Counted from the first letter of the stretch, positions 11,062 through 14,698 are shown. The stretch is DNA of 64,000 bases from Patescibacteria group bacterium (GCA_038062915.1 JBBTWD010000002.1:5189-69188), one strand, 5' to 3'. Made by a program: numbers and translations. The notes: generated from the sequence alone by a model not told the origin.

Positions 11062-12204
11062 TTATAGAAGCTCTTTTCTGTTTTCCTCTTTTAGTTTTTC
11101 AACTATTTTCTTAACACTTTGTGCGCGACTTTTGGTTGTTACCAACAGTGCGTCTTCGGTATCGACTATAACGAGATTGTCCACGTCAACTACTGCAATG
11201 AGCCTTCTATCTGTATATATCAAAGCGTCAGTTGTGTCGATATTTATAACTTCAGCTTTATTTTCTTCTTTAGTTATTATCACATTGCCACCATGATCCT
11301 TTGGGATATTTTCCCAAACTTCTTTCCAATCACCTATATCAGTCCATCCATAATCAGCAATTGCCATAATAAAATTCTTGGCTTTTTCGCTTACCGCATA
11401 ATCAACTGATATGTCAGGTAAGTCCTCATATACAGATTTTGTCGTTTCTGATTCATTTTTTTGCCCTAAAGCATCGGCTATTTTCTGCATGCCATTTGCT
11501 ATTTTAGGAGCGTGTAGATTCAAGGCATTAAGGAAACTCTGTGCTCCCCAAACATATTGATTGGCATTCCAAAAATATTTTCCTGATTGCAAATATTCCT
11601 TTGCAACACTCAATTCTGGCTTTTCTGTAAACCCTTCTAATTTAAATATATGTTTACCGTCGGATTCACTTAATTTGTCTCCCAATTTAATATACCCGTA
11701 ACCAACATTTGGATATGTCGGTTTAATACCAATAGCCAACAATAAATCCTTTTCATATACTGCCCCAGCACAGGAAAGTAAATTTTTTAAATACTCTCTT
11801 TGGGGGTCAACTAGATGATCCGCTGCTTCGTTTAGAATAACTGCCTTAGAATCTTTTTTTAAAATATAGACAGCTCCTAGCGCGTGCGCAGCCGCAGTAT
11901 TTCTTTTCATCGGTTCAACAATAATATTTTCGGCTAGAAATTCGGGTACCTCATCTATAATTTCTTTTTTATATTGGCTAGAAGTCGTCACTGCAAAAAT
12001 TTTCTCCCAGGGAAGAATTTTGTTAAAACGATACGAAGTGATCTGGGTTAAAGTTTTATTATCAAAAAGCTTTAAAAATTGTTTTGGAGAGTTAACTCTT
12101 GAAACCGGCCATAGACGCGTTCCGCCACCCCCAACCACCAACAAAGCGAATAAGTGCTTTTTGTAGTCGTCTCTTGAAAACTTCTTTAGAAAATTTTTGA
12201 GCAT
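11062..12204 (-). CDS. manC: Mannose-1-phosphate guanylyltransferase (GDP-mannose pyrophosphorylase)
   Basis: LVVGGGGTRLWPVSR...PKQF N-terminus. The annotated ATG overlaps the upstream ORF by 113 nt; an internal TTG/GTG start at LLVV is possible. Confidence 0.8.
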   Translation of the reverse strand: MLKNFLKKFSRDDYKKHLFALLVVGGGGTRLWPVSRVNSPKQFLKLFDNKTLTQITSYRFNKILPWEKIFAVTTSSQYKKEIIDEVPEFLAENIIVEPMKRNTAAAHALGAVYILKKDSKAVILNEAADHLVDPQREYLKNLLSCAGAVYEKDLLLAIGIKPTYPNVGYGYIKLGDKLSESDGKHIFKLEGFTEKPELSVAKEYLQSGKYFWNANQYVWGAQSFLNALNLHAPKIANGMQKIADALGQKNESETTKSVYEDLPDISVDYAVSEKAKNFIMAIADYGWTDIGDWKEVWENIPKDHGGNVIITKEENKAEVINIDTTDALIYTDRRLIAVVDVDNLVIVDTEDALLVTTKSRAQSVKKIVEKLKEENRKELL

Positions 12205-12640
12205 TGGCTATTAGCGTTCTTCTATTAAAGCTCATTTTATCAAACTTTTCAATTGCACGAGTCAAACTCTCTTCATTTTGTTCATCAAATAAAATCCCAG
12301 TCTGATTATCTATAACAGTGTCAAGAGCTCCGCCTTTCTTGTGTGCAATTACTGGAACACCCAAGCTCTGTGCTTCAACTGCAACAATTCCAAAATCCTC
12401 CTCTTGTGGCATTATCAAAGCTTTGGCATTTTTATAATAATCTATTAATACTTCATCGCTAACTTGACCAACAAATTTAATATTGCTATATGCCATATGC
12501 TTTAAGCTATATGTACGACTTCCAGTGCCAATAATTACTAGTTTTTTATTTAGTTTATTAAAAGTTTTAACCAAAAGTTCAACTTTTTTATAATTTACCA
12601 GTCGACCCACATATAAATAATACTCTTTCAGGTTTTGCAT
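12092..12640 (-). CDS. GT4 glycosyltransferase, C-terminal (Glycos_transf_1) half only
   Basis: YYLYVGRLVNYKKVELLV...EDFGIVAVEAQSLGVPVIA. No N-domain; overlaps the N-half ORF by 13 nt in another frame. Confidence 0.6.
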   Translation of the reverse strand: MQNLKEYYLYVGRLVNYKKVELLVKTFNKLNKKLVIIGTGSRTYSLKHMAYSNIKFVGQVSDEVLIDYYKNAKALIMPQEEDFGIVAVEAQSLGVPVIAHKKGGALDTVIDNQTGILFDEQNEESLTRAIEKFDKMSFNRRTLIANAQKFSKEVFKRRLQKALIRFVGGWGWRNASMAGFKS

Positions 12641-13182
12641 GATGGAAATATTACTTCAGAATCTCGATCGTAATATTTTTTAATTCTTCTTTTTACTTCA
12701 GTTGATATTGCAATTATTTTATCAGGACGAGTAGACGCAATTTTGTCCCAAGCTCTCAGATAGTTGATAACTGGTTTTGAAATAAACCGCAAAATCGGAT
12801 TTTTAAAATACAAATCATAATGACTCCATAAATAACGAGTAGGTGTCAACATGTAGCAAATGTGTTTTGTACCCGGTTTTGTAATAATTCCTTTTGCCGC
12901 CTCACTAGTAACCGAAATTGCCAAATCATACTCATTAAAATTAAATTGCTCAAAAGCTAGGGGCATTAGCCATCCCAATCCCTCATGCCAACTTTTGGCA
13001 AAAGGAATTTTTTGTATAAATGAAGTGTGGATTTTGGGGAAAATCTTTGCCCAAGCCGCATTTTTTTGATCATAAACAGAAGTATAAAGTGGTGCGTCAG
13101 GGAACATTTCATGGAGAGTTAAAAGTACCCTCTCCGCCCCACCCCACTTATTTACCCTGTCATACACAATAGCCGTTTTCAT
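12628..13182 (-). CDS. GT4 glycosyltransferase, N-terminal (Glyco_trans_4-like) half only
   Basis: IVYDRVNKWGGAERVLLTLHEMF...; ends ...SEVIFPSCKT immediately before the YYLYVGRL of the next ORF. Confidence 0.6.
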   Translation of the reverse strand: MKTAIVYDRVNKWGGAERVLLTLHEMFPDAPLYTSVYDQKNAAWAKIFPKIHTSFIQKIPFAKSWHEGLGWLMPLAFEQFNFNEYDLAISVTSEAAKGIITKPGTKHICYMLTPTRYLWSHYDLYFKNPILRFISKPVINYLRAWDKIASTRPDKIIAISTEVKRRIKKYYDRDSEVIFPSCKT

Positions 13183-13185
13183 CGT

Positions 13186-13215
13186 TTGAATTTTACACCA
13201 AAAACCGTTTATACT
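13186..13215 (+). promoter_or_regulatory. Candidate sigma70-like promoter for the TrpR-like gene (TTGAAT, 18-bp spacer, TATACT)
   Basis: Hexamers read directly at 13186-13191 and 13210-13215. Confidence 0.3.
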
Positions 13216-13243
13216 AAACTTATATCCGTATACTAGTACATAG
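13205..13243. promoter_or_regulatory. Operator-like repeats CCGTTTATACTA / CCGTATACTAGTACA overlapping the putative +1 region
   Basis: Near-palindrome ccgtatactagtacatag (13226-13243); 14 of 15 positions match the perfect palindrome downstream of the same gene. Confidence 0.35.
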
Positions 13244-13249
13244 ATTTAA

Positions 13250-13660
13250 ATGAGAAGATATAAATTTCTACTTAAAGAGGAAGTGTTTGAGGCTTTAAAT
13301 AAGTTAAGGGCTGCGTTTTTGGCAGCAAAAGATGGCAATGAAGTTGAAGAAATCATAAGAGGAATACTAACCAGCGACGAAAGAATTAAAATCGGAAGAA
13401 GAATTTTGATTTCTCAACTTCTAGATGAAGGGCTTACTTTTGAAGCTATTAGTAAAGATTATAGAATCGGGAAGCAAACTGCACTCCAAGTGCAAAAATT
13501 AAAAGATAGATACCCAAAGTGCTTTGAATTAATTAGTCAAAGGGTGGAAAAGGTAGAAATAGAATTTGGTAAAAAAGCTTATATTAAAACAGGTAATCCC
13601 AAATATCTCAAAAAATTTATTGAGTATACAGGGTTTAAAAGAACAGATGTTAAAAGGTAG
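13250..13660 (+). CDS. Small helix-turn-helix protein, TrpR/YerC-YecD-like
   Basis: 136 aa; the pattern DERIKIGRRILISQLLDEGLTFEAISKDYRIGKQTALQVQK resembles the Trp-repressor-like fold family; the only plus-strand gene in a minus-strand block. Confidence 0.5.
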   Translation: MRRYKFLLKEEVFEALNKLRAAFLAAKDGNEVEEIIRGILTSDERIKIGRRILISQLLDEGLTFEAISKDYRIGKQTALQVQKLKDRYPKCFELISQRVEKVEIEFGKKAYIKTGNPKYLKKFIEYTGFKRTDVKR

Positions 13661-13666
13661 TTTGTA

Positions 13667-13686
13667 TCCGTGTACTAGTACACGGA
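13667..13686 (+). terminator. Perfect 20-bp palindrome tccgtgtactagtacacgga followed by TTTTT; intrinsic terminator and/or second operator copy
   Basis: Read directly from the sequence; it overlaps the stop codon of the convergent GT4 C-half ORF. Confidence 0.45.
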
Positions 13687-14187
13687 TTTTTCATAAACAT
13701 TTAACGTTTCTTTGACCATTTTGTGCCAGCTGTAGCGCTTGACGAATTTTTGAGCGTAGGTGATTTTAGATTTTCTCTCGAATTCAGACAAATTTAGTGC
13801 CATCTTTAAAACCTTTATAATTGAATTTGAATCAAGCGGATTAAAATATATAGCTGCATTTTTGTAAACTTCTCGGAATACTGGAATATCACTACATAAA
13901 ACCAGGGTCCCTGCTTTCATCGCTTCAATTCCAGGAAGTCCAAAACCTTCTGAAAGAGACGGAAACACAAAAGCAATTGAATTTTTATAAAGACTTTTAA
14001 GTTTGTTATCTGGTACAAATCCCAAAAGTTTTACGTATTTGTTTTTATTTACTTCGAGTCTTTTAGTGAATACATCTCTACTTGAAGCTATACATAAATT
14101 TACCTTTAGTAAATTAATTGCACTAATTAATCTATCAAGGTTTTTATGTGGATAGGCACTACCCACATATAAAAAATAACTATTCAT
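13675..14187 (-). CDS. GT4 glycosyltransferase, C-terminal half only
   Basis: YFLYVGSAYPHKNLDRLISAIN...FPSLSEGFGLPGIEAMKAGTLVLCS; overlaps the N-half ORF by 8 nt. Confidence 0.6.
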   Translation of the reverse strand: MNSYFLYVGSAYPHKNLDRLISAINLLKVNLCIASSRDVFTKRLEVNKNKYVKLLGFVPDNKLKSLYKNSIAFVFPSLSEGFGLPGIEAMKAGTLVLCSDIPVFREVYKNAAIYFNPLDSNSIIKVLKMALNLSEFERKSKITYAQKFVKRYSWHKMVKETLNVYEKSVY

Positions 14188-14698
14188 ATATTACCTCCAC
14201 TTTTTCATTTTTTATTTTGTAACAGTTAACTAGTTCGTTTTTAATGACACTACTTGGAACTATTATTCTGACCGAACCCATAACAGCTTTTGCAAATGAT
14301 ATGTAATAACCAAGTCGCCAAATTTGGTAAATAGGAAACGGTCTGGTTGTGGCCTCCCCGCCAATAAACTTATGCATAATAAGATCATGAATTGTTACAA
14401 TAAATCTTCCAAAGTAAAAAAGTGGTACGTTGAAATGGGGAAAGTGAACAATATCTGGTTTATATTTTGAGATAAGAAAAGGAAGATAAAGTTGCTCTGA
14501 AAAACTATAATGTCTAAAATCTGCTTTAACTTTTTGCCAACTTTTAGGTAAATTTATACCAAGTTTATCTTTTCTTAGCAATATTACATATTTATTCACT
14601 TTGTCAATTTTTGCCAGATTTTCTACTAAATTCATTGTATATCTACCGTTGCCTGCATGTTCTGGGCCGTAAATTCTGGCGTCGATCAATATTTTCAA
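14180..14698 (-). CDS. GT4 glycosyltransferase, N-terminal half only
   Basis: MKILIDARIYGPEHAGNGRYTMNLVENL... GT-B N-domain; ends ...KVEVIYE. Confidence 0.6.
   Translation of the reverse strand: MKILIDARIYGPEHAGNGRYTMNLVENLAKIDKVNKYVILLRKDKLGINLPKSWQKVKADFRHYSFSEQLYLPFLISKYKPDIVHFPHFNVPLFYFGRFIVTIHDLIMHKFIGGEATTRPFPIYQIWRLGYYISFAKAVMGSVRIIVPSSVIKNELVNCYKIKNEKVEVIYE

Follow-up and report, generated by a model that had tools for sequence, protein, structure and literature searches.

Introduction

Controller (C) proteins of restriction-modification (R-M) systems are small helix-turn-helix (HTH) autoregulators that act on palindromic boxes at their own promoter. In lambda CI, where OL and OR flank cI, and in lac with its operators O1 and O2, a promoter-borne operator is paired with a distal cognate one at a distance of a few hundred bp. 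The described regulators closest to the locus reported here are TrpR and HisR, both of which bind palindromes of ~20 bp and are often autoregulated (PMC9413887). TrpR, whose operators are palindromes containing CTAG, is a repressor of its own gene as well (PMC9413887). The YerC protein of Firmicutes goes by the name of HisR today; it is their histidine repressor and binds palindromes of 20 bp, of the operator type cacTTTAn6TAAAgtg, and about half of the hisR genes are preceded by a site of their own (PMC9413887). Our literature search returned no description of an operator-bracketed TrpR-type system, and none that links Patescibacteria with TrpR-type regulators. To our knowledge, how transcription is regulated in the Candidate Phyla Radiation (CPR) is almost entirely undescribed, and we know of no regulator there with a defined operator. 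Here we describe a TrpR-type gene of an uncultivated groundwater bacterium that is bracketed by two copies of a palindrome, and compare it with its relatives. The stretch of 64 kb in which it was found was analysed at its full length and is referred to as the window.

Results and Discussion

A Trp-repressor-fold protein of Patescibacteria

ORF 13250–13660 on the plus strand encodes a 136-aa protein with a Trp-repressor fold and is the sole plus-strand ORF between 6065 and 28144; within these limits the first-pass annotation was right to call it the only plus-strand gene in a long minus-strand block. Its description as a TrpR/YerC-like HTH protein was likewise borne out. The protein matches Pfam PF01371 (Trp_repressor) over residues 15–77 with 30.7 bits (cut-off 27), and a profile of 30 family members finds the PDB entries 3g1c, 3kor and 3frw with E = 1.9e-7 to 5.8e-7, and E. 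coli TrpR with E = 2.5e-3. The AlphaFold (AF2) model (pLDDT 90.4) shows a TrpR-like helical core (approximately residues 9–109), all-helical and with the HTH formed by helices D and E, followed by a C-terminal beta-hairpin (111–126) and a conserved basic tail. The best-ranked Foldseek hits are all TrpR-type structures, led by 3frw, 3g1c and 3kor, then 1zt9, 1tro and 1trr (probability 0.9–1.0; target TM 0.6–0.79 overall and 0.70–0.79 for 3g1c, 3kor and 3frw). The protein is best read as a dimeric repressor of this fold.

The regulator scores 16.7 bits against TIGR01321, the equivalog model of TrpR proper (cut-off 67.25), and 18.2 bits against TIGR02531, that of YerC/YecD and hence HisR (cut-off 42.2), so that it is a member of neither. 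We found 208 homologues, almost all of exactly 136 aa, whose hosts are Patescibacteria (Levy-, Woese- and Daviesbacteria, WWE3 and Microgenomatus). Related clusters at 50% identity number 16 with a limit of E <= 1e-30, rising to 53 with <= 1e-10 and to 778 with <= 1e-3. The family is classed as a subfamily specific to Patescibacteria (Microgenomates), apart from both TrpR proper and YerC/HisR. Searches of phage (PHROG) and defence (PADLOC) libraries and of viral contigs with the regulator gave no significant match.

Two matching palindromes bracket the gene

The upstream operator-like site (13222–13247) has as its core an imperfect 18-bp palindrome, CCGTATACTAGTACATAG (13226–13243), which stops 6 nt short of the regulator ATG and had been placed correctly in the first-pass annotation. 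The downstream operator-like site (13666–13691) begins 6 nt past the regulator stop codon and consists of the perfect palindrome ATCCGTGTACTAGTACACGGAT with a run of five T at 13687–13691. It had been reported as a perfect 20-bp palindrome at 13667–13686 followed by TTTTT; perfect symmetry and T-run both hold, and the length is really 22 bp (13666–13687), which makes it the longest loop-less perfect palindrome of the window, with a runner-up of 14 bp. Compared with each other, the sites are identical in 14 of 15 core positions, as had been noted, in 15 of 18 over the full core and in 23 of 27 with flanks included. As also claimed before, the downstream palindrome overlaps the end of the convergent ORF (13675–14187, minus strand): the stop codon at 13675–13677 lies inside the central CTAG, and the right arm and centre of the palindrome encode the last codons (SVY-stop).

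With up to three mismatches allowed, the degenerate motif has no copy in the whole 64 kb beyond these two places. The window thus yields no further member of a regulon, and the suggestion that the palindromes are generic terminators found genome-wide is left without a single additional copy. By chance 0.05 occurrences would be expected at this tolerance in 64 kb, and none of 100 shuffles contained four matches. The palindrome pair around the regulator gene is therefore real and far beyond chance.

Gene neighbourhood

The divergent neighbour of the regulator (12628–13182, minus strand, 184 aa) is the N-terminal half of a GT4 glycosyltransferase and starts 67 bp from the regulator ATG, while the convergent neighbour at 13675–14187 (170 aa) is the C-terminal half of a second GT4 glycosyltransferase. 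The view of these as split GT4 genes was corrected, each pair being one gene that is split in this lineage. The window shares with L001 (71% identity) and L004 (64%; a 744-kb Microgenomatus contig) a cluster made up of a large secreted protein, a sugar transferase, a ManC-like nucleotidyltransferase, GT4, the antisense regulator, GT4, GT2 and GT4. The regulator is thus kept antisense between the same two GT4 genes in both relatives, and its gene is not a recent insertion. Most family members adjoin unrelated housekeeping genes, and the other paralogue groups have conserved neighbours of their own, namely CCA-adding enzyme/YqeY, RecX and ribosome recycling factor (RRF), so that the association with glycosyltransferases is specific to the orthologue group of the window.

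The 67-bp divergent gap between regulator and GT4 N-terminal half contains the upstream operator, and no strong minus-strand promoter was scored in this gap, so that control of the GT4 genes or their operon by the regulator is plausible, although the unrelated neighbours of most family members call for caution. From the gap position and the kept place in the cluster, the regulator may act as a gate for the downstream half, which comprises GT4, the ManC-like nucleotidyltransferase and the sugar transferase, and the window would then hold a possible control point in cell-envelope glycosylation.

The site-gene-site layout is conserved and its sites diverge with the protein

We compared 59 fetched genomic loci that encode family members, counting sites with a score of at least 12 of 16. 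The family site has the consensus YCGTnnWCTAGWnnACGR (YCGT-nn-W-CTAG-W-nn-ACGR), and the palindrome frequently reaches 24–26 bp. An upstream copy is present in 48 of 59 family loci and a downstream copy in 45 of 60; about three-quarters of the relatives share the palindrome-gene-palindrome layout. Upstream copies typically end 1–30 nt before the ATG and downstream copies typically start 2–33 nt past the stop codon. At a threshold of 13 of 16 the motif density is 6.47 per kb in the two bracket windows, in comparison to 0.014 per kb in the remaining 439 kb of flanks. In a few loci (L016, L038 and L041) a pair of CTAG boxes is spaced by 8 bp, like that of the trp operator, and in L002 and L059 the units form site-gene-site-gene-site arrays. 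Within 413 kb of homologous loci (±4 kb around 59 homologues) we found only two extra cognate copies, L002@5035 and L059@5142, each of which follows the next gene. That so few targets turned up in the window and near the homologues counts against the operator reading, as a regulator with itself as the only target would be odd.

The two copies of a locus resemble each other far more than they resemble those of other loci, with a mean of 1.9 mismatches within a locus and 6.2 between loci (38 loci in which both copies could be scored; 0 of 10,000 permutations). Paralogues that share one genome, two to three in each, bear different sites, and even on one contig two paralogues have two sites (L031 CCGTTTACTGGACAACGG, L054 CCGTCAACTAGTTGACGG). 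Site distance follows protein identity (Mantel r = -0.215, reached in 3 of 2000 permutations, with phylogeny partly controlled), site mismatches amounting to 2.4–2.9 above 65% protein identity and to 5.3–6.0 below. When alignment columns were compared with half-site positions by mutual information, for which phylogeny was again controlled only in part, the variable 'nn' bases paired best with residues 75, 65 and 64, followed by residues 76, 79 and 80 for the first core base, i.e. position 5 of the 13-nt half-site. In the HMM alignment residues 75, 65, 64, 76, 79 and 80 correspond to E. coli TrpR I79, R69, Q68, A80, T83 and R84, respectively, and the list of TrpR DNA contacts includes R69, I79, A80, T83 and R84, with Q68 absent (PMC9413887).

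As this signal is concentrated in the HTH, it argues, within the partial control for phylogeny, that the adjacent protein reads the sites. With a conserved layout and site sequences that diverge as the protein does, the palindromes are best seen as binding sites of the regulator itself. We consider that the two are probably cognate double-stranded DNA operators of the regulator, of which the upstream one would confer autorepression.

The upstream copy and possible autoregulation

A promoter-like region (13186–13220, plus strand) precedes the upstream copy. The TTGAAT-N18-TATACT element named in the first-pass annotation is present (TTGAAT 13186–13191, TATACT 13210–13215) with 9 of 12 consensus matches in the promoter scan, and the overlapping TTTACA-N17-TAAACT (13192–13220) matches equally well (9 of 12); in a region this rich in AT, matches of that quality occur no more often than in shuffles, with 23 found and 18.7 expected. 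The two -10 candidates TATACT and TAAACT start 16 and 11 nt before the operator core, which are the two modes of the family. Across the family, -10-like hexamers at offsets -17 to -9 gave 21 hits among the 48 loci with an upstream copy, compared to 4 among the 45 with a downstream copy. Most loci leave no space for a Shine-Dalgarno sequence between upstream site and ATG, so the leader must be very short or unusual, and transcript start and mode of translation are uncertain.

The location of the upstream copies just downstream of a -10-like element fits autoregulation. In the window the operator would abut the ATG and occupy roughly positions +1 to +20 of the transcript, immediately past the -10 element, which is the classical geometry of autorepression; judged by this position, bound protein would block initiation or escape, and the gene would repress itself. 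The earlier proposal of an autoregulatory operator is in line with the conserved layout, the covariation with HTH residues and the -10-like element before upstream copies.

Possible roles of the downstream copy

The downstream copy would give the protein a second place to bind, next to the gene's 3' end and in the window the stronger of the two. We take it to be an auxiliary operator, which may act by looping or as a roadblock or insulator. As an auxiliary operator it could raise local repressor occupancy, possibly via a loop of ~440 bp around the gene; as a roadblock, the bound protein could insulate the lone plus-strand gene from the minus-strand glycosylation operons that cross it. Operator spacings of 436–500 bp show no helical phasing (Rayleigh p 0.25–0.69), and looping is therefore without positive support. 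A role as promoter operator of the next gene was rejected, as the downstream copy is present irrespective of that gene's orientation (14 of 20 convergent, 29 of 38 co-directional).

In the window the downstream operator is also shaped like an intrinsic terminator for the regulator mRNA. Read on the plus strand, where the terminator scan lists it, it gives a 9-bp stem with 4 GC pairs, a 4-nt loop and -11.5 kcal/mol, followed by T5; on the minus strand no U-run follows the hairpin. A stem-loop with a U-run at the gene's 3' end was found for the window's downstream copy only: in the family, a T-run, counted as 5 or more T in 8, comes after 13 of the 45 downstream copies, no excess over the 11 of 45 among antisense controls. 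The claim that the downstream copy doubles as a terminator thus applies to the window and fails as a family feature.

This raises the possibility that only the upstream copy is a functional operator, and that the downstream one is a terminator or a relic carried along by duplication, with no regulatory role of its own. The terminator-like shape in the window would be in line with this, as would the unphased spacing and the lack of a -10 element associated with downstream copies. We nevertheless regard it as rather unlikely, since downstream copies are kept in 45 of 60 loci over lineages that are only 40–70% identical and go on matching the upstream copy as the pair diverges, and even their asymmetries are kept across species (L010 and L029 are the same in this respect). 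A relic under no selection would be lost by decay, and a mere terminator has no need to track an operator sequence. Conservation of the downstream copy and its close match to the upstream one both exceed what a relic would show, and we keep to the auxiliary operator.

DNA sites or RNA hairpins

The terminator-like shape also bears on a second alternative, in which the palindromes would work at the RNA level, the first as a 5' stem-loop and the second as an intrinsic terminator, to delimit and stabilise the regulator mRNA, and the protein would not recognise the DNA. The window's downstream copy is a textbook terminator on the plus strand, and across the family the 'loop' CTAG is kept, with symmetrical variation in the mid-part of the stem, a pattern that a protein-recognised hairpin would fit as well. 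The upstream copy of the window, however, folds with a mere -1.3 kcal/mol, which indicates that sequence and not structure is conserved, and T-runs do not exceed the antisense level. Several loci have strongly asymmetric sites, such as L014 (10 of 18 positions unpaired), some of which would make very poor hairpins, and yet they are near-exact direct or reverse-complement copies of their partner. The asymmetry common to both copies is in direct orientation in 10 loci (e.g. L004, L010, L029 and L031) and in inverted orientation in 7 (e.g. L009, L014, L026 and L045). Copies in either orientation point to a duplex DNA site, as orientation is irrelevant to a symmetric dimer, which is not so for RNA. 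Mismatches compatible with G·U pairing on the sense strand are no more frequent than A·C mismatches (39 vs 38 and 40 vs 36), and an Rfam search of the window gave no match. The covariation of site bases with HTH residues further speaks against hairpins that the protein does not read. We therefore consider an RNA role quite improbable; the sites, to judge from their sequences, act as double-stranded DNA.

Solo sites, other factors and mobility

A metagenome scan with the pattern CCGTNNACTAGTNNACGG gave, among the matches listed, 65 perfect palindromes in 124 sites, and a family gene nearby in 11 of 120 loci. Unrelated palindromes dominate among these listed matches, including a repeat family of GC 0.44 and long inverted repeats in L144, so that they do not define a regulon. 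Contigs that carry the exact 18-mer of the window (L086 and others) are not close relatives, with 28–38% protein identity. Also among the matches listed are solo sites in low-GC, CPR-like contigs upstream of obg, of aspartate/ornithine carbamoyltransferase and of H+-pyrophosphatase. Such solo sites might belong to the regulons of family proteins whose genes lie elsewhere. For a scan of the whole MAG the site pattern is YCGTRTACTAGTAYACGR.

From the metagenome matches one might argue that the palindromes are bound by another factor, or are a generic repeated element of the genome, and lie next to the regulator by coincidence: perfect palindromes of the form CCGTnnACTAGTnnACGG are common there, a family gene is near only the small fraction of listed loci given above, and some of the sites belong to unrelated repeat families. 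The motif is, however, more than 400 times denser at the ends of family genes than elsewhere, it is absent from the other 63 kb of the window, and it covaries with the adjacent protein, which makes coincidence very improbable.

Least probable of all, to the point that we give it hardly any weight, is that a small mobile cassette has been inserted between the two GT4 genes, with the palindromes as its terminal inverted repeats or sites of recombination, an idea put forward in the first-pass annotation and suggested by a short gene between near-identical palindromes, by 2–3 paralogues per small genome, by the arrays in L002 and L059 and by solo palindromes of the same type in low-GC contigs, but contradicted by the position and orientation kept in the gene cluster of L001 and L004, by the housekeeping synteny of the other paralogue groups, by an orientation that is constant within each synteny group, by the lack of a relative on viral contigs and by the lack of a transposase or recombinase domain. 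An invertible element was rejected on the constant orientation of the regulator in every synteny group.

Implications

A more far-reaching reading of the cognate operator pair sees in site-gene-site a self-contained module, copied in one piece and free to diverge afterwards, with the bound operator pair acting as a protein-dependent transcriptional insulator or valve in long same-strand gene arrays. We hold this to be unlikely. If it were true, each tiny Patescibacteria genome would contain two or three mutually orthogonal repressor/operator pairs, and in the window the double-bound regulator would gate read-through from the upstream half (18140 to 13675) into the downstream half (13182 to 8459) of the envelope-glycosylation cluster, perhaps in response to a small ligand. 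The solo palindromes before housekeeping genes (obg, carbamoyltransferase and H+-pyrophosphatase) in CPR-like contigs would then represent a wider regulon.

The preferred reading, in which the palindromes are the regulator's own operators, has implications of its own. The architecture, with a regulator gene placed between two copies of its putative site, is unusual and conserved. For one CPR-specific family the analysis offers a candidate protein-DNA code, consisting of a consensus site, the likely specificity residues 64, 65, 75, 76, 79 and 80, and natural orthogonal pairs. If binding is confirmed, regulons could be predicted in hundreds of uncultivated genomes, and a set of small orthogonal repressor/operator pairs would become available.

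Comparison with known systems

Among the known systems, C proteins of R-M systems differ from the regulator in their fold family, and no R-M genes are adjacent to it; PADLOC and PHROG searches were negative. HisR/YerC-YecD of Firmicutes is the closest group both by sequence (E ~2e-7) and by structure (TM 0.70–0.79). The family site is nevertheless unrelated to the HisR motif cacTTTAnnnnnnTAAAgtg, and his genes were not found in any of the 60 family loci. HisR is single-copy in most genomes, whereas the family described here comprises several paralogues per genome with distinct sites, and its operators bracket the gene.

With E. coli TrpR the regulator has the fold and the HTH in common, a further likeness being that the site core of the window, GTACTAGTAC, consists of two GNACT half-sites. 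In comparison to TrpR the regulator carries ~30 extra residues, which form the beta-hairpin and the basic tail. Its site differs from the TrpR motif TGTAcTnGTnnACnAgTACA by a single central CTAG and by invariant outer CGT/ACG arms 11 bp apart. The regulator has glycosyltransferases and no trp genes nearby, and a second operator is situated past the stop codon. The likeness to lambda CI and lac is an analogy of architecture only, as the proteins are unrelated; the spacing in the regulator unit is without helical phasing, and the protein is proposed as a dimer. In contrast to both, the distal site is fixed right past the stop codon throughout the family. What is new, in comparison to all of these, is a TrpR-type subfamily whose proteins are extended at the C-terminus and whose sites follow a new consensus, differ between paralogues and form a conserved bracket of putative operators around the gene.

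Split glycosyltransferase genes flanking the regulator

Both glycosyltransferase family 4 (GT4) genes next to the TrpR-like regulator are split on the minus strand into an N-domain and a C-domain ORF, the first pair at 12092-13182 and the second at 13675-14698, with stop/start overlaps of 13 and 8 nt. In two relatives with the same cluster each pair corresponds to one intact gene (365 and 375 aa in L001, 392 and 368 aa in L004), and in the lineage of the window the interdomain linker of roughly 18-22 aa is gone from both genes. Assembly errors were ruled out as the origin of the splits, because identical ones are found in the independent Hainich assemblies L060 and L061. The split genes may encode functional two-chain GT-B enzymes, for which Alg13/Alg14 provides a precedent, or they may be two parallel pseudogenes.

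Candidate promoter and leader of the regulator gene

The first-pass annotation had listed an additional half-site-like element, CCGTTTATACTA, upstream of the regulator. The element, at 13206-13217, overlaps the -10 candidate TATACT. The corresponding stretches before the L001 and L004 orthologues lack it, so it is probably just part of the promoter. The gap that separates the upstream palindrome from the ATG contains no Shine-Dalgarno-like sequence, either in the window (13244-13249) or in most other loci of the family, and is often too short for one (1-12 nt), which suggests, from the sequence, that the regulator mRNA is leaderless or has a very short leader. AGGAGG is present in the family loci L006 and L033, where the upstream site sits farther from the ATG.

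CTAG in the window and palindromes in metagenome contigs

CTAG is rarer than expected from base composition in the whole window (127 observed versus 201 expected), and 2 of the 15 occurrences of ACTAGT are within predicted operators. Among the matches listed from the metagenome scan, isolated perfect palindromes of the kind seen at family genes were found in intergenic regions of low-GC contigs (0.33-0.38), at L119 4384, L085 2452, L073 4515, L150 5923, L122 3797 and L078 416, with no family gene in their vicinity on those contigs. One of them is 89 nt upstream of obg, another separates nusA from an H+-pyrophosphatase gene, and a third lies between rplU and a carbamoyltransferase gene; these palindromes may belong to a regulon or may be what is left after the loss of a regulator.

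Two palindromic sequences also occur in repeated elements. CCGTGAACTAGTTCACGG is part of an element with conserved flanks (cacaatcg...cgacctactt) in contigs with a GC content of 0.42-0.48 (among the matches listed L063, L064, L096, L105, L109, L112, L120, L145, L153, L165 and L173). This element resembles a REP-like repeat dispersed in the genome of some abundant organism; it has no relation to the TrpR-like family. The exact 18-mer of the window, CCGTGTACTAGTACACGG, occurs in contig L144 at 6689 and 10631, inside long tandem-repeat-rich inverted repeats that bound a segment of roughly 4 kb. This element recurs among the matches listed in L131, L158, L172 and L088, and no family gene accompanies it in any of the five contigs.

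Paralogues, a distant subfamily and additional cognate sites

Small Patescibacteria genomes carry two to three family paralogues, each with its own site sequence (L003/L010, L002/L030, L029/L034/L035, L031/L054, L026/L043, L020/L042, L044/L048, L045/L058 and L053/L055). Synteny groups recurring across the family are CCA-adding enzyme with YqeY, RecX, RRF and the glycosylation cluster.

Proteins of ~175 aa (PF01371 at 58 bits) form a subfamily of the TrpR family at a greater distance; among the matches listed, it was found in L091 (2791-3354), L107 (4622-4980), L140 and L177. A 26-bp perfect palindrome, ACACCCGTGCACTAGTGCACGGGTGT, precedes the gene, 11-21 nt before its start. In L091 an ~800-aa gene stands before the TrpR-family gene, which overlaps a PfkB-family kinase gene by its last base, and there is no space for a downstream palindrome copy; the other three contigs stop in or near the gene.

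Within the family, L002 (5035) and L059 (5142) carry a third, exact copy of the cognate site beyond the gene that follows the regulator. That gene encodes a 179-aa protein without annotation in L002 and ribosome recycling factor in L059, and the outcome is a site-gene-site-gene-site array. Two overlapping sites were found at L016 4429-4454, L038 399-424 and L041 3967-3992 and 5093-5118. Judged by their arrangement these double sites suggest tandem binding, their CTAG boxes lying 8 bp apart, just as the pair in the E. coli trp operator does.
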